Shown one piece after another: positions 1 to 24,725 of a stretch of 32,000 nucleotides of DNA. Both the position numbers and the translations under genes were made by a program. Every line of letters starts with the position of its first letter. The first letter of the stretch is position 1. Source of the stretch: an uncultured Rhodobacter sp. (GTDB taxonomy: Bacteria; Pseudomonadota; Alphaproteobacteria; Rhodobacterales; Rhodobacteraceae); assembly GCA_964555305.1 (NCBI GenBank), contig CAZKSE010000001.1, positions 2,231 to 34,230 of the forward strand, written 5' to 3'. The notes beneath the pieces are model-generated. The model did no database searches and was not told the origin of the DNA. It saw only the letters and a list, made by a program, of their open reading frames with translations.

Positions 1-1
1 C

Positions 2-1411: not shown

Positions 1412-1428
1412 GTATCTGGATCCAGCCG

Positions 1429-2358
1429 ATGCCAATTGCTTTGGATGAGAAGCTGCCTGCCTTTCAGGTTTTGTCTGGTGAGGGCGTGCTGGTTATGAAG
1501 TCAAGTCGAGCCGTTGCCCAAGACATCAGGCCACTTCGGATCGGGTTGCTGAACCTAATGCCCCAAAAGATTGAAACAGAAATACAGTTTGCCCGCCTTG
1601 TTGGTGCAACGCCGTTGCAGATAGACTTGCGCATTATTCGAATGTCCAGTTACTCTTTCCGCAGCACCTCAAGCGTTCACATGGACAGCTTCTGCCAGTC
1701 CTTCGATGATATCTATCACTCGGGTGAGAAATTTGACGGGCTTATTGTTACTGGTACCCCGATTGAACACCTTCCTTTTGAAGCAGTTATCTATTGGGAT
1801 GAACTGCGTAGGATATTAGACTGGGCGCAAAGGAATGTTCACTCGACCATCGGTGTTTGTTGGGGCGGCATGGCGATGGTCAAACATTTTCATGGCCTTG
1901 AGAAGCACGATCTATCGGAGAAAGCGTTTGGCTGTTTCTTGCACCGCATCCATGATCAATTATCACCGTTGCTACGTGGGTTTTCAGATGAGATATTCAT
2001 ACCTGTAAGTCGGTGGGCGGAGATTCATCAACGGGACATCGATGCAGATTCAGAACTCAAAACCCTCCTATCTAGCGACGAAACAGGCCCGTGTCTTGTT
2101 GAGGCCAAGCCTTACCGAACTGTATACTTTTTTAATAATCTAGAGTATGAGAGATTGTCTCTGAAAGAAGATTATGACTGTGATGTAAAAAATGGACGAA
2201 AAATAGACCTGCCTTGCAACTATTACCCTGATGACAACCCTGCCGCTCAACCCGAGAACCGATGGCGCAGCCATGCACATCTTTTTTTGGGAAATTGGAT
2301 AAATGAAATTTATCAGAACACATGGTATGACATGAATAGCATCGGAGCGACCTCTTAG
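1429..2358 (+). CDS. MetA-family (homoserine O-acyltransferase-like) protein, a divergent paralog
   Basis: The 309-aa protein is collinear by eye with E. coli MetA: MPI..LP...L......[34 protein letters not shown], and VCW (Cys144, the nucleophile position). The GHPEY motif reads NNLEY (nt 2134-2148). Confidence 0.85.
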
Positions 2359-2551
2359 ATTGTGAAGTTCATGATATAAATTAGGCTATGGATAGCCGTG
2401 AAGGACAGGTTTCACGGATTAATCAGTGGGTGCGGGCTTGGATCGGGGCCGTTTTGACCGACGTGTGCGGCTGGCCAAATGGACCTTCAGATAAAACTCT
2501 ACGATATAGGTCGACGGCGTTTAAGCCCCCCGAATCGGGACGATCCCACCG

Positions 2552-3466
2552 CTACCGCGGTCGAATTTTGCGCCGCCGCTTGTATACGTTACGGGCCATG
2601 CCGAGAAGCCGCAGGGCGGCGCGCTTGGGATTCGACTCGAGCCAAACGGCCTGGACGTGGCCAAGGCTGCCGGGGCCGACAATCGGCCGCCAGACAGTAT
2701 CCACGAGTTTGACGCCCTTGGCGAAGCTCTCACCAGCGATCGTGAATCCCTTGCCGATCTGCACCTTGAGAAGGACTGTCGCTTGGCAGGCGCAGCACTG
2801 TTCGATGATGGGGGCGCGGTCGTTCGCAACGATCTGGTGCATGAGGCTAGGTTCGAGCAGCGGGCCATCAACGCCTTGGGGCACAAGCAGGCGTTCGTCG
2901 GCTAAGTCGCCCCAAGTCAGCGCCGCATTTCCGGAAAGCGGATGGTTGGCGGCGAGTAAAGCGGCAATGCCTTCCTGCCAGATCGTCTCGGCCTGGCAGC
3001 CCCGCGTGTCGTAGCCGCCGCACATAAAGGCGATATCGATCTCCCGGCGACGGATGGCATTTGCCTGTTTGCGGCAAGAACCATCCTGGATGTTGACCTC
3101 AATCTCTGGGCAGGTCTTCTCAAAGCGGTCAACGAGGCGAACCAGGAATTCGCGGCCGAACGGTGTGCTGATGCCGATGCGGAGCCTGTCGTTTTCCTTG
3201 TTTCGCCGCGCGGCGCACGTCAGGGCTTCTTCGAGACCATCATAGTGGCTACGAACGCTTTCGATCCAGTCCAGGCCTTCCGCGGTCAGCCGGACACCAG
3301 TGTTGTCGCGATGGAAAATCTGGATATCGAGTTGCTGCTCGATGGCAACTATGTTCCGGCTGACGGTCGATTCGTGCACCCCAAAAGCCCGCGCCACGCT
3401 GCGCATGCTGCTCACCTCCGCGACCGCCAGCACATATTTGAGATGACGAAGTGAACTTTCTGTCAC
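2552..3466 (-). CDS. LysR-family transcriptional regulator
   Basis: 304 aa with a GTG start. The N-terminal wHTH reads LRHLKYVLAVAEVSSMRSVARAFGVHESTVSRNIVAIEQQLDIQIFHR, followed by a typical LysR substrate-binding domain length. Confidence 0.9.
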   Translation of the reverse strand: MTESSLRHLKYVLAVAEVSSMRSVARAFGVHESTVSRNIVAIEQQLDIQIFHRDNTGVRLTAEGLDWIESVRSHYDGLEEALTCAARRNKENDRLRIGISTPFGREFLVRLVDRFEKTCPEIEVNIQDGSCRKQANAIRRREIDIAFMCGGYDTRGCQAETIWQEGIAALLAANHPLSGNAALTWGDLADERLLVPQGVDGPLLEPSLMHQIVANDRAPIIEQCCACQATVLLKVQIGKGFTIAGESFAKGVKLVDTVWRPIVGPGSLGHVQAVWLESNPKRAALRLLGMARNVYKRRRKIRPR

Positions 3467-3573
3467 ATGCCCCCCGCAATTTTTCCCGCACTATGTGGCC
3501 GTGAAGGTGGAGCCAGAAAATGACCAGTTGGCTGCTCGCCCCTCCGGGTGGGGTTTCTCGCGGCAGGGTTCTG

Positions 3574-4033
3574 TTACCAGCTTCCAGTATTCGACATACT
3601 CACCCAAGGCTCTCGGGATGGAAGCGGCTGCCCCCTTTGCAGGAGTTCGAGCGAGATCCCGTCCGGCGACTTGACGAACGCCATGTGGCCGTCGCGCGGA
3701 GGGCGGTTGATGTTGACGCCCGCTGCCTGAAGCCGCGCGCAGGTCGCATAGATGTCGTCCACGACGAAGGCGAGATGGCCGAAATTGCGCGCCCCCCTGA
3801 CTGATGTCTTCGGTTTCGCCATTCTGACCGGGCCAGTTGTAGGTGAGTTCGAGAAGTGGCGCCTTGCTGGCGCGTCCCGCGGTCTCGTCTTCGTCCGCCG
3901 CCAGGAAGATGAGGGTGAAGCGACCGGACGGGTTCTCGATGCGGTTCACTTCCACCATGCCGAGCAGATCACAATAGAAATGAAGGGACGTTTCGATGTC
4001 CGAGACGCGAACCATCGTGTGCAGGTATTTCAT
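3574..4033 (-). pseudogene. gloA: Lactoylglutathione lyase (glyoxalase I), disrupted by a +1 frameshift in a homopolymer run
   Basis: The N-terminal half (MKYLHTMVRVSDIETSLHFYCDLLGM...[20 protein letters not shown]) is in the frame of ORF 3491..4243, starting at the ATG at 4033. The C-terminal half ([52 protein letters not shown]) is in the frame of ORF 3574..3822. The switch falls at the C6 run 3792-3797 (G6 on the coding strand). The span is 460 nt, which is 3n+1. Confidence 0.8.
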
Positions 4034-4104
4034 TGGGATTCTCCCGGTTGGTGATTGAGGTCGCGCCCTGGCGGACGCGACGGGGAAAGGCGCGGGCCAA
4101 ACGG

Positions 4105-4130
4105 TCATCCCGGCCCCAAGGCCGGGATGA
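4105..4130 (-). terminator. Strong GC-rich hairpin between the DJ-1-like gene and gloA (terminator-like)
   Basis: The sequence tcatcccggcc-ccaa-ggccgggatga forms an 11-bp perfect stem with a 4-nt loop. It lies 58 nt downstream of the 4188 stop on the minus strand. The trailing sequence CCGTTTGG gives only a weak U-tract. Confidence 0.35.
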
Positions 4131-4187
4131 GGCGTTCGGTGGCGGTGGGATGAGGAAGACGGCGCGGTTTCATGGCCATCGCGTATG

Positions 4188-4898
4188 TCACGCAGTAGCC
4201 GTTTGCTCTTTCTGGGCGAGGGCTTCGAGCATCTTCTCTGCAACCAGCGCGGCCGAGGCCGGGTTCTGGCCGGTGATCAGTTTGCCATCGCGCACTGCAT
4301 GTCCCTTGAAGTTGTCCGTGCCCTCGAACTTGGCGCCGAGCTCGCGCAGCCGGGATTCGAGCAGGAACGGCATCACCTCAACAAGCCCAACCGCTTGTTC
4401 CTCTGCATCGGTGAAGGCATTGACGCGAAGGCCTTCGACAACAGGCCGACCGTCGGCCCGCCTGGCTGCGACGAGACCGGCGGGGCCGTGGCACACCGCG
4501 CCGATAATTCCGCCCGCGTCGAAGATCTTGCCGACCAGGGTCGCCAGAGCATCGCTCTTGGGGAAATCGAACATCGTTCCGTGGCCGCCGGCAAGGAAGA
4601 TGCCGTCGAAATCGGCCGGAGACACATCGTCGATCCGCGCCGTTTTCGAAAGCAGCGCCATCGCATGACTGTCGACCAGGAAGCGCGCGACGGGCTCAGG
4701 GCGCTCCGATGGATCGTCCTTGACGCTGGAGGGATCGTATTCGGGGTGTCCGCCCTCGATCGAGGCGATCGTGATCTCGTGACCGGCATCGACCAGTGCC
4801 CAATAGGGCGTTGCCATTTCGTCGAAATAGAAGCCGGTCTTCTTTTCGGTGCTGCCGACCTTGGTATGGGACGTCAACACGATCAGAATTCTTGCCAT
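4188..4898 (-). CDS. DJ-1/PfpI-superfamily (class I glutamine amidotransferase-like) protein, possibly a glyoxalase III-type enzyme
   Basis: 236 aa from the ATG at 4898, with an AGAGGA SD upstream. The ORF-track N-terminal extension is not protein-like. It has the nucleophile elbow GAVCHGPAG, IFLAGGHG, and C-terminal LITGQNPAS. Confidence 0.85.
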   Translation of the reverse strand: MARILIVLTSHTKVGSTEKKTGFYFDEMATPYWALVDAGHEITIASIEGGHPEYDPSSVKDDPSERPEPVARFLVDSHAMALLSKTARIDDVSPADFDGIFLAGGHGTMFDFPKSDALATLVGKIFDAGGIIGAVCHGPAGLVAARRADGRPVVEGLRVNAFTDAEEQAVGLVEVMPFLLESRLRELGAKFEGTDNFKGHAVRDGKLITGQNPASAALVAEKMLEALAQKEQTATA

Positions 4899-4955
4899 TG
4901 TGTTATCCTCTGTTTGAGACAGAGGAACAATGCTTGACTTTGGGCCCGTGCGGAA

Positions 4956-4979
4956 ATTGGAAGTCCCGATAGTTCCAAT
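4956..4979. promoter_or_regulatory. Dyad-symmetric candidate operator upstream of the DJ-1-like gene
   Basis: ATTGGAA-N10-TTCCAAT has perfect 7-bp inverted arms. It lies in the 95-nt gap between the stop of the LysR gene (4994) and the start of the DJ-1-like gene (4898). Confidence 0.25.
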
Positions 4980-4993
4980 CGCGCAGACAATGC

Positions 4994-5914
4994 CTATTGC
5001 GACGAGGCGGCAAAGGCCTTGGAAACCTGGGTGCGGAACCATTGCTGTGCAGGATCGCTATCGGCGACCACGCTCCAGGTCATCAGATTCCTGACCGGCG
5101 GAATGTCGACTGGGCATGGATCGATCTCCAGTTGGCCGATGGCCGCCAGTTTCTCGGCGATGAAATCCGGTATCGTCGCTATCATGTCGTTGTCGGGCAG
5201 AACCGCCAGAAGCAACGCGAAGTTGGAAAGACCGATGGCGACGCGTCTGCTCCGGCCCAGGGCCTGCAACTGATCGTCCACAAAGCCGCAGAGGTCCCCC
5301 CTTGGGGTGACGATGGCATGCGGCCGCACGCAGAAGTCGTCGAGATCGGTGACCGGCGGCTGTCGCGCGTCGCGCAGCACAACCCAGCCCGCATTGCGCA
5401 GCACTTTCATCTTGGCGGTGGCCGGAAGGTTCTCCCGCATATACCCTATCGCGGTCGTGATCTGCCCTGCAGCGAGCATATCCGGGAGCGTGCGATAGTC
5501 ACCGATCCGCACAATGAGATCGCAGCCCGGGGCATGTGCCCTCAAGGTTTGCGTCAGGCTTGGCAGGATCGAGAAAGCGACCGCATCCGTGCATCCGAGA
5601 TGGAATTCGCGGGTGTGCAGGGCAGGATCGAAGTCCAGTGTGGTTCCGACGGCGGCCGAGAGCGCCTCGAGATGAGGTTTGGTGAGCCTGACCAGTTCGA
5701 GCGCCTTCGTGGTCGGCTCCAGGGCGCGGCCATTGCGCACCAACAGTTCATCGCCCAGTGTCTCGCGGAGCTTGGCAAGAACACCCGAGACCGTCGATTG
5801 GGCCAGATGTAACCGTCTGGCGGCGCGGACGGTGCTTTTTTCCTCGACCAGAACCACCAGCGCCGACAAGAGGTTCAGATCGAGATTGCCAAGACTTGTA
5901 CGACTGAATGACAT
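4994..5914 (-). CDS. LysR-family transcriptional regulator
   Basis: 306 aa from the ATG at 5914. The wHTH reads LDLNLLSALVVLVEEKSTVRAARRLHLAQSTVSGVLAKLRETLGDELLVR. Confidence 0.9.
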   Translation of the reverse strand: MSFSRTSLGNLDLNLLSALVVLVEEKSTVRAARRLHLAQSTVSGVLAKLRETLGDELLVRNGRALEPTTKALELVRLTKPHLEALSAAVGTTLDFDPALHTREFHLGCTDAVAFSILPSLTQTLRAHAPGCDLIVRIGDYRTLPDMLAAGQITTAIGYMRENLPATAKMKVLRNAGWVVLRDARQPPVTDLDDFCVRPHAIVTPRGDLCGFVDDQLQALGRSRRVAIGLSNFALLLAVLPDNDMIATIPDFIAEKLAAIGQLEIDPCPVDIPPVRNLMTWSVVADSDPAQQWFRTQVSKAFAASSQ

Positions 5915-5940
5915 GGCTTTCCTTGAAGACGAAAGAATGC

Positions 5941-5957
5941 CGGGGATGACATCCCCG
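5941..5957 (-). terminator. Hairpin plus T-rich tail downstream of the cupin-PfpI-HAD operon
   Basis: The sequence cggggat-gac-atccccg forms a 7-bp stem. On the minus strand it is followed by GCATTCTTTCGTCTTC. It lies 77 nt after the HAD stop (6034). Confidence 0.35.
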
Positions 5958-6033
5958 TCTCCAAGTAATAGCACATTGGATTGCAATCAGAATCCCCTTC
6001 GCGGCGTTGTTCTTGCGTCATCGCGGCGGCGGA

Positions 6034-6777
6034 TCAGGAACTGCCAGCCGCCGTCAACTTCGCGACTTCGGAGAGATGGAGCATGCGCACATCGTGCTCC
6101 GCGGCGACCGCAAGGTCCTCCGGACCGTGGTATCCCCATCCCGCCCATTCGACCCGAACGGGAAGATCGCGGGCATCGAGGATGTTCTCGATGCTGTCGT
6201 CGACGAAAATAATGCCTCCGCCGGCCATGTCCGGGTCATGGTTGACGAGGGCCTGAAGGACATGACGCTTGTTCTTGCACGCCCCTTCGATCCTTGAGAC
6301 CTTTTCGTCCAATCCATGAAGCTTCAGGACCGCCTTGATCGACTCGGCATCCTTTGCAGAGACGATCACGATGTCCTGGCCGGCATTGGTGATCAGTTCG
6401 GCGACCTCGGGATGTACGGTGTGCAGCCCGGTCCACTGGTCATATTGCTGGTCACGCCAGTTGCCCCTGACGCGCTCGGCAACCGCTGCCTGGTCCGCGA
6501 GATCGCGCCTGTGCAGATCGCGGGTGCTCTGGAAGAGCGGCCGGTCGATGCTACCGGGGCGTTCATGGAGAAAGTTGGTGACCATGAAATCATCGAGCGT
6601 GCGGCTGTAAGCGCGAACCTGTCTGAAGGTTTCGATGAACGAATGAGGCACCTCGTCGATCGCATCGGGAAGACGGGGTGCTGCCGCACCCCGTCCGAAT
6701 GGTCCCGCATGCCAGGTTACCGCCGCGCATTCCTGCAACGCGTCGGCAACCACGCCGTCGAAATCAAGCGCGAGCAT
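6034..6777 (-). CDS. HAD-superfamily hydrolase
   Basis: 247 aa from the ATG at 6777. HAD motif I is LALDFDGVVAD (DxDxV). The late motif is IIFVDDSIENI (acidic DD). It overlaps the preceding gene by 14 nt. Confidence 0.75.
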   Translation of the reverse strand: MLALDFDGVVADALQECAAVTWHAGPFGRGAAAPRLPDAIDEVPHSFIETFRQVRAYSRTLDDFMVTNFLHERPGSIDRPLFQSTRDLHRRDLADQAAVAERVRGNWRDQQYDQWTGLHTVHPEVAELITNAGQDIVIVSAKDAESIKAVLKLHGLDEKVSRIEGACKNKRHVLQALVNHDPDMAGGGIIFVDDSIENILDARDLPVRVEWAGWGYHGPEDLAVAAEHDVRMLHLSEVAKLTAAGSS

Positions 6778-7336
6778 ATTGCTTCTCCGAGCTGGCCTCG
6801 GCCGCCCTCGCTTCAACGACCTCGAACATCGTCCGCATGAACTTGCCGACATAGGCGTAATAGGAGCAGGTGATGATGTTGCCATCCGTGACGACATCGC
6901 CATCGATGACATTCGCGCCGGCGTTGATCACATCATCGCGCAGGCCGATATAGGCGCAGGCAGTCTTGTCCCGAAGAACACCGGCGCTGACCATAATCCA
7001 GGGGCCATGGCACAGTCCGGCCACCACTTTTCCGGCGGCGTCCATGCCGCGCACGAAATCCAGAACGGGCTTGACCTGGCGAACGCGGTCGGGGGCTTCG
7101 TGACCGCCGGTGAGCACCACGGCGTCGTAGTCGTCAACGGCCAGATCGTCATAGGAGATCAGGGGTTGGGCGGTCTTGTCCATGGGAAGGGGAACCCCGT
7201 ATTTCCCGATGGTTTCACGGCCGTCCTTGGTGGCGACGTCGACCTCCCAGCCCTCTTCGATGAGGCGGTAATAGGTGTAGATGACGTCGTGGTCCTGGAA
7301 GCCTTGCCCGGTGATGATTGCTGCGCGTCTCGACAT
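6764..7336 (-). CDS. DJ-1/PfpI-family protein (PfpI-type intracellular protease/amidase-like)
   Basis: 190 aa from the ATG at 7336. Motifs are VVLTGGHEAP and the nucleophile elbow AGLCHGPW. The length is typical for this family. Confidence 0.85.
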   Translation of the reverse strand: MSRRAAIITGQGFQDHDVIYTYYRLIEEGWEVDVATKDGRETIGKYGVPLPMDKTAQPLISYDDLAVDDYDAVVLTGGHEAPDRVRQVKPVLDFVRGMDAAGKVVAGLCHGPWIMVSAGVLRDKTACAYIGLRDDVINAGANVIDGDVVTDGNIITCSYYAYVGKFMRTMFEVVEARAAEASSEKQYARA

Positions 7337-7370
7337 GAATTTACCTTTCGTCTTTTGAGGGAGGGGAGGA

Positions 7371-8153
7371 TCAGGCGCCGACAGCTTCGACGCAGAGGTA
7401 GTGCGCATCGGTGTCGACGTTCTCTTTCTCGCGCGCCTGATCGCTCAGGATGATCATGTCGTCGGAGAGCAGAGCGTCGATGCCGAGTTTGATCAGGAAC
7501 GCGCCGTCGGCGATGCTGCGATAAAAGACATCCATTCCAGTCCGGATCGAGAACCTGAACTTCCCGCAAGGGGAGACGGGGCAGAAGCTGGCATTGGGAA
7601 ACTGCGGATGGCGCCGACGACCGGCGGGCAACGGAGTGCCCTCGGGCTCGTACTGCTTTGCAGCGCGATCATAGTTGTCGGCCAGCCGCACAAGATCGAA
7701 TTTGTTCCTCGGCGTTTCCACCTCGATCAGCATCAGCGGCTCGGTGCCGTCATCGCATTTCGTCGCGTGAAAGGCGCCTCGGCCGATGCGCAGGATCGTG
7801 CCCTGGCTGATCGGGACCGAATTCTTGAGGTTGGTGCTGACCCCGGAGCCGGAAAGGCACAGGAGATAAGTGGTCTTGCGGGGATGCGCGTGTACGGAGG
7901 TGGACTGCCCCGGATTGATCTGGAGGTGCCAGATGTCGAGGAAGTCGTCCACAAAGGCGCGATATTCCTGCCCCCAGGGCTTGGTGATCAGCCCATTGAG
8001 ATATTCGTCGCGATCCTGCTGCTCGTTTTCGATGCGGATTCCGCTTTTGAGCAGATCGTTCAAGGCGGAGATGTCCTGTCTGGTGGCATCGATACGAATA
8101 GCGGGATCGATGGGGACGGAGGTGGTGTGTCGCGGGGATATTGCCTCAAGCAT
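7371..8153 (-). CDS. Cupin-domain protein
   Basis: 260 aa with an ATG at 8153 and a TGGAG SD. The KPWGQEY motif is followed by PGQSTSVHAHPRKTTYLLCLSG (cupin motif 1, HxH) and GTILRIGRGAFHATK (motif 2). It is the first gene of a three-gene minus-strand operon. Confidence 0.7.
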   Translation of the reverse strand: MLEAISPRHTTSVPIDPAIRIDATRQDISALNDLLKSGIRIENEQQDRDEYLNGLITKPWGQEYRAFVDDFLDIWHLQINPGQSTSVHAHPRKTTYLLCLSGSGVSTNLKNSVPISQGTILRIGRGAFHATKCDDGTEPLMLIEVETPRNKFDLVRLADNYDRAAKQYEPEGTPLPAGRRRHPQFPNASFCPVSPCGKFRFSIRTGMDVFYRSIADGAFLIKLGIDALLSDDMIILSDQAREKENVDTDAHYLCVEAVGA

Positions 8154-8415
8154 TTGAAACTCCAGTGGTGGTGACAGTCATACTTTTCGAATGCGAAACT
8201 GTGGGCCTCGCCCCTCCCTGCGCCGTCTCGTGGATGTCTACTTGTTCTTTTTCCTCGGTTCTTGGCTCTTCAAGTAAAAGGTATGGCGGATGGTCTTGAC
8301 GGCGGGAAATCGGAAAAGCCGATAGGAATAATTGTGAAACACTGCTTTCCCTCGTGCGCGTGAAGCATTTGTATTGATCGGTATGGCATCGAGTCCTGGG
8401 GCGTTGTTGGACACA

Positions 8416-8671: not shown

Positions 8672-9805
8672 TCAGCCTCCTGTCGGCTCGAACACAAGGT
8701 CACGGGTCACGATGATCCTGACAGGGAAGCCGGGCCGGATGGTCAGCGTCGGCGCGACCTGCAACTGGCGCTGGATGATCTGCTGGCCCGCCTGGTTGAT
8801 GGTGTCCTGCGCCCCGTCGCGGATGGCGCGGATCAGGCGGTCCTCGTCGCTGGTGGCCAGTTCCGCGCCGACCGAAAGCAGGGTCGAGAGGCCGGCGACC
8901 TTCATCAGATCCCACCAGTGATAATCGACGCCATCCTCGAGCCCGGCAAAGCCCGACGCATCCGCGCCCGGCAGGCGCTCTAGGACGATGGAGCGGCCAT
9001 CGGGCAGGATCAGGCGATTCCACACCAGCAACACGCGGCGCTGACCGAAGGTCACGCCGTCATCATATTGCCCGATGATGCGCGTGCCCTGCGGGATCAG
9101 GAGCAGCGAGCCAGTCGGGCTGTCATAGACATTCTCCGTCACCTGCGCGGTGATCTGTCCGGGCAGATCGGAACGGATGCCGGTAATCATCGCGGCCGGG
9201 ATCACGGACCCGGCCTGAAGGATATAGGGCGAGGCCGGCGGCATGACGCGGTCAGGGGCGACGGGCTGCCGGTCGACCGGTCCGTTGAAGAAGGTGGTGT
9301 GCCGATCCTGTGCGCCGACCTGTCCACCAAGTTCAAGACCGGAGAGGCCCGGCATCGTAGTGGCGGCTGTCTGAGGACGCGGCCCGGTCTGGAAGAACAC
9401 GTTGCTCAGACGCGCCGCTTCTTCCTCGGCACGGCGGCGTTCCTCTTCCGGATCGACAGCAGGCGTTGCGATGGCGGGTGGCGCGACCGGCTGTCCGCGC
9501 TCCTGAGCGCTGAGAATCGGACGTCCGAGATCGCCGGGCAGCGCCGGTCCCAGGACGGGGCCGGTATAGTCGCGCGGCAGGCCGGACAGGCCGTCCGCCG
9601 TGGGCCGGTTCTCGGTCGAATAGAGTTCTCCGCCTCCCGGTCCCGCTTCGCGGGTCTGGAGGGCGTAGATCAGTGCCCCGCCGATGCCGAGAAGTGCCAC
9701 TGCGCCCACGCCCGCCAATACCTTGCGGGACAGGCGGGTGACGCGGGGCGGCTCGGCGCGCAGGCGCATGGGCGCGGCGGTGTCGGTGATCGGGTTGTCT
9801 GTCAT
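8672..9805 (-). CDS. trbI: Conjugal transfer protein TrbI (VirB10 family)
   Basis: 377 aa with an N-terminal TM segment (VLAGVGAVALLGIGGALIYAL), a Pro-rich linker and a C-terminal beta-barrel region. ATGA overlap with trbG. Confidence 0.9.
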   Translation of the reverse strand: MTDNPITDTAAPMRLRAEPPRVTRLSRKVLAGVGAVALLGIGGALIYALQTREAGPGGGELYSTENRPTADGLSGLPRDYTGPVLGPALPGDLGRPILSAQERGQPVAPPAIATPAVDPEEERRRAEEEAARLSNVFFQTGPRPQTAATTMPGLSGLELGGQVGAQDRHTTFFNGPVDRQPVAPDRVMPPASPYILQAGSVIPAAMITGIRSDLPGQITAQVTENVYDSPTGSLLLIPQGTRIIGQYDDGVTFGQRRVLLVWNRLILPDGRSIVLERLPGADASGFAGLEDGVDYHWWDLMKVAGLSTLLSVGAELATSDEDRLIRAIRDGAQDTINQAGQQIIQRQLQVAPTLTIRPGFPVRIIVTRDLVFEPTGG

Positions 9806-16478: not shown

Positions 16479-16543
16479 GGCGCACCGCCTTCCGCCGTTG
16501 TAAAGGAAGCACGAAATGAACCGAAATAATCTAGGAGATTCAG

Positions 16544-16858
16544 ATGATTACGTGCCAGGTCAAATATGTGATCGACGCCGACAAGATCGCGGAGTTCGAA
16601 GAGTATTCCAGAATGTGGCTCAAGCTCGTGCCGCGTTTCGGCGGGACGCATCACGGCTATTTCCTGCCGTCGGAAGGCGCGAGCGATATCGCGCTCGCGA
16701 TCTTCAGCTTTCCGAGTTTTGCCGCCTATGAGCAGTACCGAATGGATGCGGCCAGCGATCCCGACGTGCAGAAGGCGGTTGCGTTCGCCAAGGAGACGCG
16801 TTGCTTCCTGCGCTATGATCGGTCGTTCTTCCGACCGCTTCTGTCCGACGCGGCCTGA
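16544..16858 (+). CDS. NIPSNAP-like dimeric alpha/beta-barrel protein (antisense insertion inside the trb cluster)
   Basis: 104 aa, with an AGGAGA SD 7 nt upstream of the ATG. The sequences KIAEFEEYSRMWLKLVPRFGGTHHGYFLPSEG and FPSFAAYEQYR are typical of the NIPSNAP/ABM-like fold. Confidence 0.7.
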   Translation: MITCQVKYVIDADKIAEFEEYSRMWLKLVPRFGGTHHGYFLPSEGASDIALAIFSFPSFAAYEQYRMDAASDPDVQKAVAFAKETRCFLRYDRSFFRPLLSDAA

Positions 16859-16885
16859 TTGAGCGTTTCGCTTGACGTCCATCGC

Positions 16886-17167
16886 TCAGACCTCCAGCCG
16901 CGCCGGGATGCGCAGGTGCTGGCGCGCGACCTCGACGAAAAGCGGATCGCGTTTCGCCGCCCAGACGGCCATGAGGTGGCCGACCGCCCAGATCAGGATG
17001 CCGGCAAGCCAGAGTTGCAGCCCGAGGCCTATGGCTCCGGCCAGTGTGCCGTTCAGGATGGCGACGGAGCGCGGCGCCCCACCAAGCAGGATCGGCTCGG
17101 TCAGGGCGCGGTGGACCGGGACGCTGAATCCCGGCACCGTGTCGAGTGCCTCGAAACTCACCCCCAT
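16886..17167 (-). CDS. trbD: Conjugal transfer protein TrbD (VirB3 family)
   Basis: 93 aa. The sequence VPVHRALTEPILLGGAPRSVAILNGTLAGAIGLG is present. TGATG junction with trbC. Confidence 0.9.
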   Translation of the reverse strand: MGVSFEALDTVPGFSVPVHRALTEPILLGGAPRSVAILNGTLAGAIGLGLQLWLAGILIWAVGHLMAVWAAKRDPLFVEVARQHLRIPARLEV

Positions 17168-18491: not shown

Positions 18492-18984
18492 CTCGTCCCC
18501 GTTCCACCGGGGAGGCGAGAGAAAAACCCCGGATGGGGATGACTAAAAGAGACCCAAAAGGGGCCGATTCAACAAGTTTCGGTCGTAGTAGTAGTGTGGC
18601 GTGCAAATACAGGAGAACGGCGGGGACCATGTCCCGCCTCCAAGGTTTGAGCGCCCCTGCGCAACCACTCGTTGATTCGATTGGCCCGCTGGACTGACAA
18701 CTTTCGGGATACGCCGGAGACTGGCTACGCATGCGCGACCTGCGTTTGCAACTGCAGCTACCCCGACGTGGAGGCAAGGAAGGGTCGTTCGCGGCGACCA
18801 CAAAGACATTCAACTGCCTTCGGTTGAGTGGTCCTTGAAGCATAGAGCTGCCCCGAGCTTCGACCAGACGCCGTAATCGCGAAAGCGCGGTAGAGCAGAA
18901 CGTCGGTCTTGAACGTGCGATCACACAAGGGCAATCTCGTCGCGATCGAGAGCATGAGAGCAAGTATTCGGGGGTTATTTTTTC

Positions 18985-21003
18985 ATGACTTCGCTACGCC
19001 CAAACCTTGTAAAGCGAATTGAACGCCTGCCCAAACCGACAAATGTAGCTGGAGCCATGCAGCCACTTTTTGAAGCGGTGAGCAATGCCATCCATTCGAC
19101 ACAGTCGCGGTATGGCGATCGTGTGGCGAGCGAAGGGCGTGTCATCGTCACTGTCAACACCAGCAGAAACAAGCAGGACGTCTGGGCAACCGTGGAAGAT
19201 AATGGCGTAGGTCTTGATGATGACAATTGGGATGCGTTCACGACCACGGACACCGACAACAAGATTCAGATCGGCGGCAAGGGTGTCGGCAGGCTAATGT
19301 GGCTGGACTGTTTCGAGGAGATAAGCGTCAACTCAGTTTTCAGGAACAAAGACGGCGGACTTCAGGGGCGGAAGTTTAAGTTCAAGCTTGCGCTGGAAGA
19401 TCAGATTCAGGACCTTGAAGAAGGTGCAGCACCGGATGCTTCCGACAGCGTTTTCCACGTCCGGCTATCAGGCCTCCGCGACAATGGATACCGCGCCAAA
19501 TTTCCCGGTCGCGACAGCTTTGTTTTTCAACACCTCACTTCACACTTCCTGCCAACCTTCATCGGAGGCCGGAGCCCGCAAGTGAGCGTTCATGTGCGTG
19601 ACGAGACTCGCGAGTATCCGAACGCCATCTCTGACATTGTTCACAGGCAGGACAAAGCGATGGCCATCCAAACAGAGGAGTACGGCGATCTGAACCTGAC
19701 CCTGATGGAGTGCGACAAGGTTGCGAGCGCTGACCTCAAAGGGAGGCATTTCGTCCACTTCATTGCGCATGACAGGACGGTCCATTCGCAGAGCATCGAC
19801 GGCAAACTTGGCCTTAGCTATTTCGGCGAAAATAACGACAGGGTGTTCCACGCCATCGTAACCGGTGAGTTCCTGGACACTAATGTCAACCAGGAGCGAA
19901 CGGCATTCATTTTTGAGGACGCTGTGATTGAAAGGATCATCAATGACGTCTGCTCCGAGAGAATTGAAGCGTTCCTATCGGTGCCACTAGCCCTTCTGAA
20001 AGGTGAGCAGCGTGGAACCATAGAGACGATCACTGCAACATATCCTTCTGTTGCGTTTGGGGATGTGGACGAGCTGCAAAAACGCGTCCCTTCAGGGGAA
20101 CTGAAAGCAGATGCGATCTATGGGCATCTCTCCCGTGAACGCTTCCGCCGTGACGAACGACAGGCTGAAAAAATCAGGAGCGTCCTGAATAGGCTCAAAG
20201 AGGGTGTCGCAGACATTAGCACGTTCAGCGCGGCAATCGCCGACGCCAGCACAGCAATAGAAGAGGCGGAGCAGAGGAGTCTTGCTGAGTATATTGTCCG
20301 CCGCAAGGTCGTGCTGGATTTCATCGAAGTCCTTCTTGAGAAGGTCCGTGACGACACCCGCGACAGCTCCTACCAGCGGGAGGACATACTGCACTCGTTC
20401 ATCTGCCCGCTTCGCGTCAGGACCATCGATGGAGGCGGCAGCAAGGTAGAACCTGCAGCGTCACATGACCTATGGATAGTCGATGAGAGGCTGACATTCG
20501 CACAGTACTTCAGCTCTGATGTTGAGTTCCGGAAGCTGTCGGAGGCCGTTGAAAGCGATGAGCGCCCGGATGTCCTGATCTTCGACTATGTGCACGGCCT
20601 GCGGCAGACCGATGAGCCGTCAAAAGTCCTTCTCATTGAATTCAAGCGCCCAGGGCGAACGAATTATACAGAGGAAGAGAACCCGCAATTTCAGGTGGAG
20701 CGTTACGTCAAGCGTCTCCAGAGCGGCGAGCTCTCGGACGTTCGGGGGCGCCCAATAGCGCTGGACCGCAACACGATATTCTACTGCTACATTGTTGCTG
20801 ACATTGTTGGGAAGATGGACACGTGGACGTTCTCGTGGCAGCGAACGGCAGATGGCCGGGGAAGGGTCTACCGGCCCAACAGCGGGTTCCATGGCTCAAT
20901 TGAACTGCTCGGGTGGGATCAACTCATTGGAGATGCCAGAGCACGGAACCAAGCATTCTTCGACCGCGCCGGAATTTCCGGGAACAGCTTCTTCACAACC
21001 TGA
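18985..21003 (+). CDS. Fusion protein: GHKL (Bergerat-fold) ATPase plus a C-terminal RecB-like PD-(D/E)xK nuclease
   Basis: 672 aa. N box is E30-AVS-N34-A (19072-19089). G1 box is D72-N-G-V-G (19198-19212). G2 box is G97-G-K-G-V-G102. The C-terminus has RPD529VLIF, LLIE552-F-K554 and Q570-VER-Y574 (QxxxY), spanning nt 20569-20706. Confidence 0.75.
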   Translation: MTSLRPNLVKRIERLPKPTNVAGAMQPLFEAVSNAIHSTQSRYGDRVASEGRVIVTVNTSRNKQDVWATVEDNGVGLDDDNWDAFTTTDTDNKIQIGGKGVGRLMWLDCFEEISVNSVFRNKDGGLQGRKFKFKLALEDQIQDLEEGAAPDASDSVFHVRLSGLRDNGYRAKFPGRDSFVFQHLTSHFLPTFIGGRSPQVSVHVRDETREYPNAISDIVHRQDKAMAIQTEEYGDLNLTLMECDKVASADLKGRHFVHFIAHDRTVHSQSIDGKLGLSYFGENNDRVFHAIVTGEFLDTNVNQERTAFIFEDAVIERIINDVCSERIEAFLSVPLALLKGEQRGTIETITATYPSVAFGDVDELQKRVPSGELKADAIYGHLSRERFRRDERQAEKIRSVLNRLKEGVADISTFSAAIADASTAIEEAEQRSLAEYIVRRKVVLDFIEVLLEKVRDDTRDSSYQREDILHSFICPLRVRTIDGGGSKVEPAASHDLWIVDERLTFAQYFSSDVEFRKLSEAVESDERPDVLIFDYVHGLRQTDEPSKVLLIEFKRPGRTNYTEEENPQFQVERYVKRLQSGELSDVRGRPIALDRNTIFYCYIVADIVGKMDTWTFSWQRTADGRGRVYRPNSGFHGSIELLGWDQLIGDARARNQAFFDRAGISGNSFFTT

Positions 21004-21044
21004 GTGGCGTCGATAACTCGTCAATATTATGCGCAGGACGATTG

Positions 21045-22400
21045 CTACCAGTATATGGCCACGACCTCCACATCCAAGAGGCTGACATCATCCTCACTGA
21101 TATGGGCGGCGGTGGGCACTGATGCGGAAGGTGCTCCATGCTCCGGTGCAGGCAGATAAGCCAGATCGCTCAAAGAGCGCGCCCGATTGCGGAATTCCAG
21201 ATCCTTCTCCGCACCTATTCTGAATCGCCCGAAGCGCCTTACCTTTTTACCCACCATGTCAAACGCATTCCTCTGGCCCTGTGGGGACGCCATCAGAGGT
21301 GCCGCGCCAAGTATCTCGGCTTCGATCTCCAAGTCCTGGTCTGGCGTAAGGGCCTTCCCAGAATGAGCCAGCAAAAGCTGGCGGTACGTTCGCAGGGCTC
21401 TTGTCAACGCGTTTTCCAGTTGGAGGTGCGATTGAGGCACCGGCTTGGCGCTGAGCGCATATGTTCCCGCAAGGTTTATCTGGTGCAGAAGGTCCGGGGC
21501 GACATCGCGGAACAGGTCCGCCAGCTTCACGGGTGTCCAAGTCTGTTGTAGGCCGTCGCGGGAAACCCTGCAAAGGATGGTGAACTCCGCCTCAGAGAAC
21601 AGGACTCTACGAATGTCCTTCCAATAGGCGAGGTGTTCGGTGACGCCCACGATCGTCAAAGGGCGAACAGGGAGATCGGCGTCTCGAACTGCGTCCTTGT
21701 GCACCACGAAGTCCTCGCCATCCAGGTTGACGACAACCCGATCCACTGCTTCGGCCCGGATAGGAATGAGACCGGCGAGCAGGCGGGTGAGTATCTTGTT
21801 CATCGGCTCTGCGTTCTCGAGCGCGCCGGACCATCCATCGGGGGAGTATTTGTTCGGGAAGTCTTCCGCGATGCTCATGAATTCTGAAAGCATAGTGCCC
21901 ATGTGGAATACCGGGTCGGCCGCCAATCGCACCTTCAGTTCAATCAGTTTCCCGCGCAGGAGGTTCGAAGCCGGAGTTGCCATAGACGGATCCTGAGACC
22001 GCCTGATCGACGCGGCGTCCATAGCGGCAACATCGGTCACGACGCTGATAAGACGAAGGTTCGCTTTACCGTGTAGCTCGCGGAACCAGGACTGCACCGT
22101 GGCCTTGCGCGAGGTCTGGAAAGTACTGCTGTTGGCCGTTTGAAAGCGAGAGGCGAGTTCCGCCTTGCCTATCAAGGCATTTTCGATGCCGGCGACGGTA
22201 CTGGTCTCGACTTCATACCCGTCAATGGACTGGTGCGAAGTGCCTTCGGTCATACCATCGGCCTGCGAAGAGAGCAGGCTTCGAAGACTGACCTCGTCCA
22301 AGTAAACGAACTCACGGAGCGGTCCCCCACTGTTCGGCTTCCGAGGCGCAGGCTTCGGCGCTTTCCTGAACCAGCGCTTCACCCATCCCACGATGCTCAT
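21045..22400 (-). CDS. Hypothetical 451-aa protein, translationally coupled to the upstream AAA+ ATPase
   Basis: The ATG at 22400 overlaps the AAA+ stop as ATGA, and an AGGAGG SD lies 8 nt upstream. It has a basic N-terminus (WVKRWFRKAPKPAPRKP) followed by REFVYLDEVSLRSLLSSQ. I could identify no catalytic motif. Confidence 0.7.
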   Translation of the reverse strand: MSIVGWVKRWFRKAPKPAPRKPNSGGPLREFVYLDEVSLRSLLSSQADGMTEGTSHQSIDGYEVETSTVAGIENALIGKAELASRFQTANSSTFQTSRKATVQSWFRELHGKANLRLISVVTDVAAMDAASIRRSQDPSMATPASNLLRGKLIELKVRLAADPVFHMGTMLSEFMSIAEDFPNKYSPDGWSGALENAEPMNKILTRLLAGLIPIRAEAVDRVVVNLDGEDFVVHKDAVRDADLPVRPLTIVGVTEHLAYWKDIRRVLFSEAEFTILCRVSRDGLQQTWTPVKLADLFRDVAPDLLHQINLAGTYALSAKPVPQSHLQLENALTRALRTYRQLLLAHSGKALTPDQDLEIEAEILGAAPLMASPQGQRNAFDMVGKKVRRFGRFRIGAEKDLEFRNRARSLSDLAYLPAPEHGAPSASVPTAAHISEDDVSLLDVEVVAIYW

Positions 22401-23635
22401 TCGTGCGCCTCCTGGGAACTCCGACTGGGTCGGCTGGATACCCGCTCAAATGCTTGCGCCAAGTCTTCGCCCTCTATCTTGCCCCGGCGATCACCTGCCG
22501 CAACCAATGCGGCCTCCGCCCACAGGGCCCCTAGTTGAGCCGCGGACCAACCCTCGGTTGCTTGAGCCACCTCGCTCAGGGGCAGATCGACGGCCACGTT
22601 GAGGCCTCGCGTCGCTACTTTCAAGATTGCCAGTCGATCGGAAACGTCAGGCATGCCGAATTCGATCTCCCAATCGAAACGCCCGGGACGCGTCAGGGCC
22701 GGGTCCAACGCCTCAACTCGATTGGTGGCCGCGATGACGACTACCGATCTACCCTGGTCATCAAAACCATCCATGAGCGTGAGCAGCTGCGCCACTAGCC
22801 GCTTGGAGGCTTCGTGGGTGTCGCCTGTACGCCGCTCCGCAATGCTGTCTATCTCGTCGAAGAAAACGATCGCGCGACCCGAACGACTTTCTCGTGCGGC
22901 ATCGAATATGCGGCGCAGGATGTCTTCTGTCTCCCCCAGCCACTTGCTGACCACGGAGGGCCCGCTCACGAGGTAGAAATCGGCCTTCGACTCGTGCGCG
23001 ATAATCCTCGCCAAGTGCGTTTTCCCCGTACCGGGCGGGCCGCTGAAGAGCACGCCCTTGACTGGACGCGCCTTAATCTGGTCGAGGTGTCGGCGTCGCT
23101 TGAACTGGGTCTCGATGAGTTCTCGCGCTCGTTTAATCACGTCGGGGTACCCGCCGAAATCAGCAAATGTCGGCCCATCGGACGCTGCGGCAACGAAATA
23201 GTCGTCCGGTCCCTGATCGCTATCTTGGGAGAAACGGCGACTGCGCAGCGGCGTCTGGGACAGGACGCGAATAACCCCCTCCGCGTCGTTGTATTCTATT
23301 GCGTTGTCGGTCTCGACCTTGACCTTCCCGGGGTTCCGAAGAGTCCGGATCCCAAATCCGTCGTCGATGAGCACGGTTCCACCTTCGATCACCTGCCGCA
23401 CGGTTGCGACCGAATTGCTGGCGGCCCAGACCTCTGCAGGAGCAATTTGCCAACCGCCATTGCCCACCAGAATGACATCACCTCGCTCGGGGAGATCATG
23501 GCGAAAGCCGGAGACGCGCAATACTCGGCCGTCCAGCGATCGCGCGTGCAGGACGCCGTTGTCTTCATCGACATGCAACACCTTGAGCAGCATGCCCGCC
23601 ATGGCTTCCAAATCGTCGTCAGCACCTATGCTCAT
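22397..23635 (-). CDS. Classic-clade AAA+ ATPase (Cdc48/FtsH-like single AAA module) with a ~190-aa N-terminal domain
   Basis: 412 aa from the ATG at 23635. Walker A is GPPGTGKT (23018-23041). The pore loop is K-W-L-G. Walker B is IVFFDEID. Sensor 1 is IAATN. The second region of homology is ALDPALTRPGRFD. The 72-aa upstream GTG extension in the ORF track is W/R-rich and was rejected. Confidence 0.85.
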   Translation of the reverse strand: MSIGADDDLEAMAGMLLKVLHVDEDNGVLHARSLDGRVLRVSGFRHDLPERGDVILVGNGGWQIAPAEVWAASNSVATVRQVIEGGTVLIDDGFGIRTLRNPGKVKVETDNAIEYNDAEGVIRVLSQTPLRSRRFSQDSDQGPDDYFVAAASDGPTFADFGGYPDVIKRARELIETQFKRRRHLDQIKARPVKGVLFSGPPGTGKTHLARIIAHESKADFYLVSGPSVVSKWLGETEDILRRIFDAARESRSGRAIVFFDEIDSIAERRTGDTHEASKRLVAQLLTLMDGFDDQGRSVVVIAATNRVEALDPALTRPGRFDWEIEFGMPDVSDRLAILKVATRGLNVAVDLPLSEVAQATEGWSAAQLGALWAEAALVAAGDRRGKIEGEDLAQAFERVSSRPSRSSQEAHE

Positions 23636-23813
23636 CGCGTACCGTCCAAAACAACGGTGTCGATTCCCTGATACACGCTGAACGCACTGGTGGACCTGTC
23701 CGACACTGTCGAGCTTCCGTTTCCAGGAGGTGCCTTCCGCAACAAAAAGGCGGAGTCCGTCTCGCAAGTCTCGCCGAAAATGGTACCATATCTGAACACC
23801 GCCATGTAGAAGA

Positions 23814-24293
23814 TCACGTTCCCTCCACCGTCGGACGATCCATAGCCTCACAGCCTCTTGGCGAAGCGATCCGTGTACCGTGCATGCATAACGCTATCGC
23901 TGCCGCGGATCGGAGACCAACGTGTGAACCGCCGCGGCACTGCGATGGCAACATCGCTCGATCGCTTGACACGGCACATCTCTGCGGCGTTTGCGTCGAA
24001 CTCGAAGTAGGTCGCTGGATTTTTGCAATCTTCCGATTCTCATCGGGCATTGTATTCGGCGCCCCCCTATAGTCTTCACTATATGCATGCGCCAAACCGG
24101 GCGCACTAGATCGAAGCAAGCGCACCACCGATGCGTGCTTTTCCGCCGGGGTAGTTTGAGCTTGAATCTCAGCAATTCGATCTTTCAGGCTACAGTGGTC
24201 CAATAGAACATCAAGATCAACTTTCGACAAGTCATTCAATGCCTTGTGGATTTCTCGAGCCGTCCTGATTGAATTGCGCTCAAACTGCGCCAA
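23814..24293 (-). CDS. Doubtful small ORF (helical N-terminal ~80 aa, low-quality C-terminal half)
   Basis: It has only a TTG start, 3 nt after and in frame with the copG stop, and a weak SD. The first ~80 aa (AQFERNSIRTAREIHKALNDLSKVDLDVLLDHCSLKDRIAEIQAQTTPAEKHASVVRLLRSS) look like a real helical domain. The remainder is Ser/Arg/Cys-rich. Confidence 0.3.
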   Translation of the reverse strand: MAQFERNSIRTAREIHKALNDLSKVDLDVLLDHCSLKDRIAEIQAQTTPAEKHASVVRLLRSSAPGLAHAYSEDYRGAPNTMPDENRKIAKIQRPTSSSTQTPQRCAVSSDRAMLPSQCRGGSHVGLRSAAAIALCMHGTRIASPRGCEAMDRPTVEGT

Positions 24294-24296
24294 TGT

Positions 24297-24725
24297 TCAT
24301 TGGCCCGCGCCCTCCACATCCTCCGAGACTTCCTGCCGAAGCTTCGGCCCCTGCGCAAGGCGTCGGCCGAGCGCGGCGATGAAGGCTTCGTAGCGCTCGC
24401 CGGCTTTGGCGCGCGCAGCCTGAGCGGTGGGCTCGGGCAAGGCCGGCGTGGTCGTGAGCCAGAAGCGGATGAACACAGCGAGGCTTTCGACGGCGATGCC
24501 GAGATCGCGCTCCAGGCGCGTCATGCGGCGATCAATTTGGTCGAGACGTCTGCCAATAACCGCCTCCCGGCGCTCCGCATCGTCGGGCGACAGGAACGAG
24601 GCGATGGCGGCTTCCACGATCATCGATTGCGACTGATCCCGGCGCGCCGCGAACTCCGCCAGTGCTTTCTCGACGTCCGGGTCCAGATAGGCCGTCACTT
24701 TTTTCTTCTTACGAGGATTGGTCAT
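24297..24725 (-). CDS. Ribbon-helix-helix (CopG-family) regulator of the transfer region
   Basis: 142 aa from the ATG at 24725. The RHH signature is KKKVTAYLDPDVEKALAEFAARRDQSQSMIVEAAIASFL. It starts 4 nt after the traG stop. Confidence 0.8.
   Translation of the reverse strand: MTNPRKKKKVTAYLDPDVEKALAEFAARRDQSQSMIVEAAIASFLSPDDAERREAVIGRRLDQIDRRMTRLERDLGIAVESLAVFIRFWLTTTPALPEPTAQAARAKAGERYEAFIAALGRRLAQGPKLRQEVSEDVEGAGQ

Follow-up and report, generated by a model that had tools for sequence, protein, structure and literature searches.

Dodola is a broad, experimentally validated anti-phage system of two proteins, DolA and DolB (Millman et al. 2022), whose mechanism is listed as unknown. The literature assigns DolA to the DUF6414 family and published accounts describe DolB as ClpB/Clp-like; a survey preprint reports the system in Euryarchaeota, and when chromosomally integrated it causes a growth delay in S. 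thermophilus. Here we describe a pair of overlapping genes, coding for an AAA+ ATPase and a DUF6414 protein, on the minus strand of a 32,000-nt stretch of DNA from an uncultured Rhodobacter sp. (contig CAZKSE010000001.1; hereinafter the window, to whose full length all positions refer unless another locus is named). Judging from its sequences, the pair looks like an undescribed sister form of Dodola, since the two have the DUF6414 protein and the two-gene logic in common but the motor comes from another AAA+ clade. The pair is strictly conserved across bacteria and haloarchaea, and the literature on unfoldase-based defense yielded no description covering it.

Both systems consist of a DUF6414 protein and a single-module, presumably hexamer-forming AAA+ protein with an N-terminal domain, encoded by adjacent genes in one operon (overlapping by 4 nt in the window and adjacent at all 80 related loci analyzed), and both occur in defense islands and on mobile elements with no identifiable nuclease, protease or NADase effector. 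In contrast to DolB, which is ClpB/Clp-like by description, the ATPase of the window is of the classical clade, with the PF00004 and AAA_lid_3 domains and a KW[LV]G pore loop. Its DUF6414 partner is a long form of about 450 aa lying outside the curated Dodola profiles, and the form presented here is distributed over Actinomycetota, Alphaproteobacteria, Chloroflexota and Halobacteria. The original prediction, made from the sequence of the window, had noted a resemblance to Dodola and otherwise left a choice between a known system and an unrelated pairing. The resemblance holds for the DolA family and the two adjacent genes; it breaks down at the PADLOC DolA and DolB profiles, which fail, and at the motor, which is of the classical clade and not ClpB-like. 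The choice itself dissolves, as the pair does not stand apart from Dodola and no described system can claim it with confidence; it is better seen as a sister architecture.

Two further immune systems bear comparison. In cyclic oligonucleotide-based antiphage signaling systems (CBASS), the AAA+ protein TRIP13/Pch2 unfolds its HORMA partner from a terminus, regulating immunity. Here too an AAA+ protein with an N-domain, a putative remodeler, is encoded beside a non-enzymatic partner, and the PADLOC TRIP13 profile matches the window ATPase (E=4.5e-17); yet no HORMA fold is detected and there is no cyclase or effector operon, making the parallel one of functional analogy only. The best PADLOC match of the ATPase is IetA (E=1.5e-36) from Ietswaart (IetA/IetS; Gao et al. 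2020), likewise a two-gene cassette around a classical-clade AAA protein, and an IetAS-like pair adjoins our module at one locus. The partner here is DUF6414 rather than an S8 protease, and the NCBIfam model NF042959 (IteA) scores 103.7 bits against a cut-off of 510, with the similarity limited to the generic AAA module.

The coupled gene pair and its conservation

The ATPase gene (22,397–23,635, minus strand) encodes a 412-aa protein with a single AAA module of the classical clade, as defined by its open reading frame (ORF), Pfam matches and an AlphaFold2 (AF2) model, and is followed by the gene for the 451-aa long-form DUF6414 protein (21,045–22,400, minus strand), recognized from Pfam (PF19952), AF2 and conservation. 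The two overlapping ORFs, the ATGA joining them and the AGGAGG ahead of the second had all been pointed out by the original prediction, which left the strand unstated, and all are present on the minus strand. Specifically, the ATG of the DUF6414 gene occupies 22,400–22,398 and the TGA of the ATPase 22,399–22,397, the ATGA at 22,397–22,400 thereby combining stop and start in a 4-nt overlap (the junction reads ...CCAGGAGGCGCACGAATGAGC...), while the AGGAGG Shine–Dalgarno sequence (22,408–22,413, minus strand) lies 7 nt 5′ of the DUF6414 ATG, within the ATPase coding region. The ATPase frame is open further 5′, to a GTG at 23,851; independent gene callers on identical metagenome contigs place the start at the ATG at 23,635 (412 aa), from which its residues are numbered here, and the alignments of homologues start at about residues 5–16.

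This arrangement recurs well beyond the window. A pattern scan of one genome per species (185,579 genomes), confirmed by tblastn, recovered 164 loci, a rare and patchy distribution, and the best 80 of these were analyzed. They come from Alpha- and Betaproteobacteria, many Actinomycetota, Chloroflexota, Ignavibacteria and Terriglobia. At 80 of 80, an orthologous ATPase lies directly upstream of the DUF6414 gene on the same strand, with 40–61% identity to the window ATPase over full-length matches, and at none does DUF6414 occur without the ATPase, which bears out the expected co-occurrence of both families across genomes. The divergence of one gene is correlated with that of the other, their bit scores rising and falling together from locus to locus (Spearman 0.84). 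Because the 4-nt overlap itself recurs at 44 of the 80 loci and 73 of 79 scorable junctions fall between -23 and +9 nt, the coupling of the two genes exceeds chance. When the neighbors within three genes on either side were clustered, no third conserved gene or regulator emerged, the largest cluster (an HsdR-like protein) being present at just 8 of the 80 loci.

The reciprocal scan of metagenomes, anchored on the ATPase, returned nine full-length orthologues as opposed to 71 generic Cdc48/VAT-type hits, which align only over ATPase residues ~156–379; it is the N-domain that separates the two groups. In the set of 80 genomic loci, the tblastn alignment begins in the first 20 residues of the window ATPase at 58 of 77. 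DUF6414 lies downstream of five of the nine orthologues, three are on contigs that end at the ATPase gene and one is solo, such that five of six informative loci carry the partner; none of the 71 generic hits has DUF6414 beside it. The solo case (L099 2944–4206), on a human-gut contig, is a full-length orthologue with 47% identity including the N-domain, situated between thiD and thiC. No DUF6414 remnant was found in the ~1.2 kb 3′ of it, even by profile search, and it is the sole uncoupled case seen.

A HMMER search of 1.84 billion cluster representatives (50% identity) collected 727 clusters at E<=1e-3, of which 464 reach E<=1e-30, and the best 150 are almost all of ~420–480 aa apart from about ten shorter fragments. 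On these sequence matches, the long-form DUF6414 proteins make up a coherent family of moderate size. Plasmids carry it too: tblastn located the family in 24 plasmid records, mostly haloarchaeal, and the three loci inspected (Halobacterium salinarum R1 pHS3, Corynebacterium marinum pCmarinum2 and Haloarcula pHsi139) all show the ATPase-then-DUF6414 order with the same Pfam domains. On pHS3 (L085 3625–6050; NC_010368.1) the AAA gene OE_RS13100 and the DUF6414 gene OE_RS13095 abut, with an integrase and a transposase adjoining, and about eight Halobacterium plasmids give a match of equal identity and extent (27.2%, query residues 28–304). No copies of the pair were found in the phage genomes and viral contigs of INPHARED or IMG/VR, a result that is neutral as to a role in defense.

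Architecture of the two proteins

In the ATPase, a disordered linker connects the beta-rich N-domain to the AAA module, which includes AAA_lid_3. Pfam identifies AAA (PF00004, E=7e-42) and AAA_lid_3, and the closest solved relatives are the AAA modules of VAT and p97, with about 45–50% identity as read from the VAT alignment and a whole-chain E of about 1e-105. Every motor motif listed by the original prediction was found, and its numbering of E261 is right: the Walker A motif GPPGTGKT (23,018–23,041, minus strand; residues 199–206), the aromatic pore loop 1 KWLG (22,934–22,945, minus strand; residues 231–234; KW[LV]G across the family), the Walker B motif DEID (22,847–22,858, minus strand; residues 260–263) with E261 as the catalytic glutamate, sensor-1 N305, and the second region of homology RPGRFD (22,673–22,690, minus strand; residues 316–321) with arginine fingers R316 and R319. 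Across 70 homologues these positions hardly vary: L and V alternate at the third residue of the pore loop, conservation is 90% or higher at K231, at W232 and on the N-terminal side of the sensor region, and the remaining positions are invariant. The Walker A and B motifs, aromatic pore loop, sensor-1 asparagine, second region of homology with two arginine fingers and AAA_lid_3 together place the protein in the classical clade. With its motifs intact, it would be expected from the properties of AAA+ families to form hexamers and thread polypeptides.

The AF2 model (mean predicted local distance difference test score, pLDDT, 83.5) has two small beta-rich subdomains, a disordered linker and one AAA module. 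By Foldseek it most resembles proteasomal Rpt subunits (E=5e-27); these matches span ~345 columns, and therefore the alignment reaches into the beta domain, while p97 ND1 appears within the top 50. The N-terminal region (23,171–23,635, minus strand; residues 1–155), specific to this ATPase family, has strands within residues 14–65 and 75–126, forming the two subdomains, and a disordered linker at 132–141. Thus, the N-domain is beta-rich, as had been proposed, with AF2 strands between 14 and 126; it also gives no match to CDC48_N. It belongs to no significant Pfam or PDB-sequence family, and in one of 17 members there is a sub-threshold match to Prot_ATP_ID_OB_C, the oligonucleotide/oligosaccharide-binding (OB) domain of proteasomal ATPases. 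The Foldseek coverage and this one sub-threshold Pfam hit suggest an OB-like fold.

The protein can be set apart from its better-known relatives on several counts. It resembles PAN, Mpa/ARC and Rpt1–6, which include its best structural matches, in having predicted OB-like beta domains before one AAA module and the same motor motifs. Unlike them, it lacks an N-terminal coiled coil (the AF2 model has no N-terminal helix) and an HbYX or GQYL motif for docking at the C-terminus, which varies across the family and has no penultimate aromatic residue; there is no sequence-detectable OB family, and the gene is mobile and unlinked to proteasome genes. Models for PAN, Pan1/2 and Mpa score far under their cut-offs and do not place it among the proteasomal ATPases. 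From Cdc48, p97 and VAT it differs by a single AAA module in 412 aa versus tandem D1–D2 and by the missing match to the CDC48_N double-psi-barrel, and TIGR01243 (Cdc48) gives 235 bits versus a cut-off of 803. From its sequence and model, we classify it as a PAN/Rpt/Cdc48-like unfoldase that, because the HbYX tail is lacking, is predicted not to be a proteasome cap.

The 451-aa partner, which had been proposed for comparison with DUF6414 models, is a full-length member of that family: PF19952 matches with E=3.8e-50 (171.6 bits versus a cut-off of 25), and positions 1–283 of the 283-position profile map on residues 28–450. It is ~170 residues longer than the profile, hence a long form, and has no match in NCBIfam or PADLOC. 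A basic tail opens the protein, followed by an invariant N-motif and a flexible linker of fixed length; next come a polar helix and an alpha/beta core, and after a helical bundle that varies among members the chain finishes in a C-terminal strand with YW as its last residues. The segment REFVYLDEVSLRSLLSSQ, previously singled out as conserved-looking, tops conservation with 97% mean column identity across 82 homologues; the N-motif LREFVYLDEVSLRSLLSSQ (22,263–22,319, minus strand; residues 28–46; mean column identity 0.97) folds as a strand plus helix in the model. Ahead of it, the N-tail (residues 1–27) is poorly conserved (0.30) and basic, as had also been noted: it has seven K/R and no D/E in the window protein, and a net charge of at least +3 in 83% of members.

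Following the N-motif, linker 1 (residues 47–83; 0.51) is of low AF2 confidence and of fixed length, 36–38 aa, and leads to the S/T/Q/N-rich polar segment SRFQTANSSTFQTSRKATVQSWFRELH (22,071–22,151, minus strand; residues about 84–111; 0.86), for which AF2 predicts a helix with a polar face from residues 90 to 111. The alpha/beta core (residues 112–300) has a mean column identity of 0.61–0.75, the variable helical bundle (301–411) 0.47 and the flexible linker 2 (412–439) 0.36. The protein closes with the strand LLDVEVVAIYW (21,048–21,080, minus strand; residues about 440–451; 0.88), a confident beta-strand (AF2 pLDDT 85–93) whose terminal YW is near-invariant, haloarchaeal members included. 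The model as a whole (pLDDT 76.6) has no structural relatives in the PDB or BFVD by Foldseek (best E 0.17, template modeling score about 0.1), and PDB sequences searched with a profile gave no matches; since neither comparison found a relative, no catalytic or effector activity can be named for this protein.

Genomic setting of the pair

An exact protein match occurs on ten metagenome contigs of an alphaproteobacterial conjugative element with the gene order parA, DUF2840, S26, DUF736, SLT, DUF3363, TraG, RHH/CopG, [AAA][DUF6414], GHKL (opposite strand) and trbB-C-D-E-J-L; the element in the window resembles an integrative and conjugative element (ICE). The pair resides in a ~5.7-kb insert of low guanine-plus-cytosine (GC) content (18,624–24,318) between trbB and copG, together with an unrelated GHKL gene. 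The insert is delimited by the backbone homology to the plasmids pOT1-2 and p242883, which ends at ~18,574–18,623 and resumes at ~24,319, and has a GC content of 0.54–0.61 as compared to 0.62–0.69 in the flanking backbone. The same slot is empty in Haematobacter pOT1-2, where copG and trbB are 146 bp apart, and holds Fic and UPF0149 genes in Paracoccus saliphilus p242883. As related backbones leave it empty or filled by Fic, the copG–trbB slot of this Trb-type backbone is a cargo hotspot (~18,620–24,320 in the window; L093 3592–3739; L094 3073–5679).

Elsewhere, the pair is found directly downstream of a type I restriction–modification (R-M) operon with AAA_13 genes, or in an island with a DDE transposase. 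On a Mariprofundaceae contig (L092 6399–12564) it is immediately followed by a second AAA gene and a Peptidase_S8 gene, the IetA/IetS-like pair mentioned above, with a large serine recombinase, ArdA and KlcB on the flanks; this locus is a mobile defense islet. A scan of 121 neighbors encountered Gabija, CBASS cyclases, type III restriction enzymes, Old/AriA, DRT, YgjP-like proteins, XRE-type helix-turn-helix proteins and integrases. The neighbors are variable, and often defense or mobile-element genes.

Further features surround the pair in the window. The leader 5′ of the ATPase gene (23,636–24,296, minus strand; ~660 bp), part of the insert and devoid of backbone homology, presumably bears the promoter; it contains no convincing sigma-70 consensus, and a promoter and terminator scan around the pair did no better than on shuffled controls. 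A 61-aa ORF (23,632–23,817, minus strand), whose TGA overlaps the ATPase ATG (ATGA at 23,632–23,635), is annotated as a gene on one of the identical metagenome contigs (L003) and not on the others. The GHKL gene (18,985–21,003, plus strand) runs convergently toward the pair, the stop codons being 41 bp apart. Its 672-aa product has a GHKL (HATPase_c) ATPase domain in the N-terminal part and, in the C-terminal part (residues 525–554, ...VLIFDYV...LLIEFK), a D...ExK pattern reminiscent of PD-(D/E)xK nucleases. It has no PADLOC or NCBIfam match. We rejected it as a third component, given that it accompanies the pair only on identical contigs and at none of the 80 related loci; it might instead represent a MORC-like conflict gene that works on its own. 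Another, small break in backbone homology at ~16,482–16,904, between trbE and trbD/trbC, coincides with a NIPSNAP-domain gene annotated on the identical contig (L001 15543–15857) and looks like a second, minor insertion of cargo inside the operon of the type IV secretion system (T4SS). At the left end, positions 1–8,200 are of lower GC (0.49–0.61) and code for a radical S-adenosylmethionine protein, homoserine O-succinyltransferase, LysR, two DJ-1/PfpI proteins, a glyoxalase and a cupin. As this end has such metabolic and regulatory genes and the T4SS genes start at trbI (8,672–9,805), the boundary of the element is probably near 8.2–8.6 kb.

Function and relation to Dodola

We consider it fairly probable that the pair is a self-contained, horizontally mobile two-gene conflict or defense cassette related to Dodola. 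Such a cassette would most likely be an anti-phage or anti-plasmid defense module, as suggested by its homology to DUF6414/Dodola and by genomic context. Under this explanation, the first gene would furnish a PAN/Rpt/Cdc48-type AAA+ protein forming a hexameric ring that threads polypeptide through its KW(L/V)G pore loops, driven by ATP. The second, translationally coupled to it, would supply the long-form DUF6414 protein as specificity and/or effector subunit, be it as the substrate or regulatory target of the ATPase or as an adaptor-effector. By analogy with CBASS, we further posit that the ATPase might act directly on its partner, engaging the basic N-tail (1–27) or the 47–83 linker beside the invariant LREFVYLDE motif. 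This remodeling would hold the DUF6414 protein inactive or reset it, comparably to the action of TRIP13 on HORMA, and infection would tip the balance, leading to growth arrest or to neutralization of an invader protein; the variable helical bundle could serve as a surface for recognition. The ATPase as the controlling partner fits with the ATPase-first order and coupling, the fact that DUF6414 is never alone and the one solo ATPase, and a remodeling model fits with an accessible basic N-tail and a fixed-length flexible linker between the two most conserved motifs. To this specific model we give roughly half of the confidence that we place in the cassette as such, which makes it a tentative proposal, and the direction of regulation and the substrate are speculative.

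Several observations weigh against this interpretation. The PADLOC DolA profile (PDLC03837) does not match the window protein at E<=10 and, of 79 diverse members of the subfamily, picks up one (E=0.042); the DolB profile (PDLC03838) likewise has no match to the window ATPase at E<=10. The Dodola link comes through the Pfam family and published statements rather than direct alignment with canonical DolA/DolB. Firmicute Dodola was reached neither by tblastn of plasmids and phages with three family members, nor by a homology search with a haloarchaeal protein, whose 32 matches were all haloarchaeal, nor by the exhaustive HMMER profile search, in which the top 150 matches are of the long form throughout. 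No recognizable catalytic or pore-forming fold was found for the DUF6414 protein in the comparison with the PDB and BFVD. Ordinary metabolic genes are also among the 121 neighbors, which constitute a list and not a background-normalized enrichment. Finally, the action of the ATPase on its partner is proposed by analogy and the defense role is read from the genes and their context.

Among the alternatives, an addiction module stabilizing the ICE or plasmid, in which a toxic DUF6414 protein is continuously neutralized by the ATPase with no dedicated anti-phage role, survives best, though we regard it as unlikely. It would account for the antidote-first order with translational coupling, the location on ICEs and plasmids, the absence of DUF6414 without the ATPase whereas a solo ATPase exists, and the growth delay seen with Dodola in S. 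thermophilus. Yet many copies reside in chromosomes, next to R-M, Gabija or CBASS genes, and a 412-aa ATP-driven motor would be unusually costly as an antitoxin; moreover, a toxin–antidote relationship is compatible with abortive-infection defense rather than exclusive of it.

Only marginally less plausible, and still improbable, is that the pair is a divergent member of canonical Dodola and hence already known, so that broader models such as those of DefenseFinder would call it Dodola. The DUF6414 assignment is strong and full-length, the Euryarchaeota Dodola of the survey preprint could be haloarchaeal AAA–DUF6414 pairs, and the P-loop of the DolB profile near position 170 of 375 implies a similar layout of an N-domain and one ATPase module. 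Set against this, DolA never picks up the window protein, and DolB finds nothing in the window ATPase even at a threshold where IetA (1e-36) and TRIP13 (5e-17) match it readily; with haloarchaeal ATPase orthologues, the DolB profile gives P-loop-level matches alone (8.8e-5 and 0.018). The ATPase is of the classical clade, by its identity to the VAT/p97 modules and AAA_lid_3, as opposed to the ClpB/Clp-like DolB, and the partner extends about 170 residues beyond the DUF6414 profile.

A housekeeping proteostasis pair, namely a proteasome- or Cdc48-type ATPase with a dedicated substrate adaptor, is much harder to sustain. Rpt subunits are the best structural neighbors of the ATPase, homologues are annotated in the source records as '26S protease regulatory subunit' or 'transitional ER ATPase', and there are partial NCBIfam matches to PAN, Cdc48 and FtsH, but all the NCBIfam matches (Cdc48, PAN, FtsH, Mpa and IteA) fall far under the curated cut-offs. 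Against it also stand the single AAA module without coiled coil or HbYX tail, the rare, patchy and cross-domain distribution with variable neighborhoods, and the placement of the window pair in a low-GC cargo insert. Least credible of all is that the pair assists the conjugation machinery of this ICE family as an accessory factor, since the location between traG/copG and trbB that would favor it is contradicted by related backbones with copG and trbB adjacent or with Fic in the slot and by T4SS neighbors not being common to the 80 related loci.

Returning to the Dodola-related cassette, the finding bears on what its core activity may be. A sister family of about 460–730 clusters at 50% identity keeps DUF6414 and swaps a Clp-type for a proteasome-type unfoldase; as DUF6414 is kept with different motors, generic polypeptide threading is pointed to as the conserved activity that it needs, which narrows the mechanistic hypotheses for both Dodola and the AAA–DUF6414 form. 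A bolder version, which we hold to be doubtful, is that DUF6414 proteins are obligate partners of threading AAA+ motors, recruited independently from the ClpB/Clp-like and PAN/Cdc48-like clades, with mechanical unfolding as the core of an immune strategy that would either activate a dormant effector with a new fold or take apart a protein of the invader, with no need of a nuclease, protease or NADase. Because the PADLOC Dodola models do not see the family, surveys of the defensome probably underestimate its numbers in Actinomycetota, Alphaproteobacteria and haloarchaea. Halobacterium salinarum R1, which is genetically tractable and carries the pair on pHS3, provides an archaeal host in which it can be studied natively.

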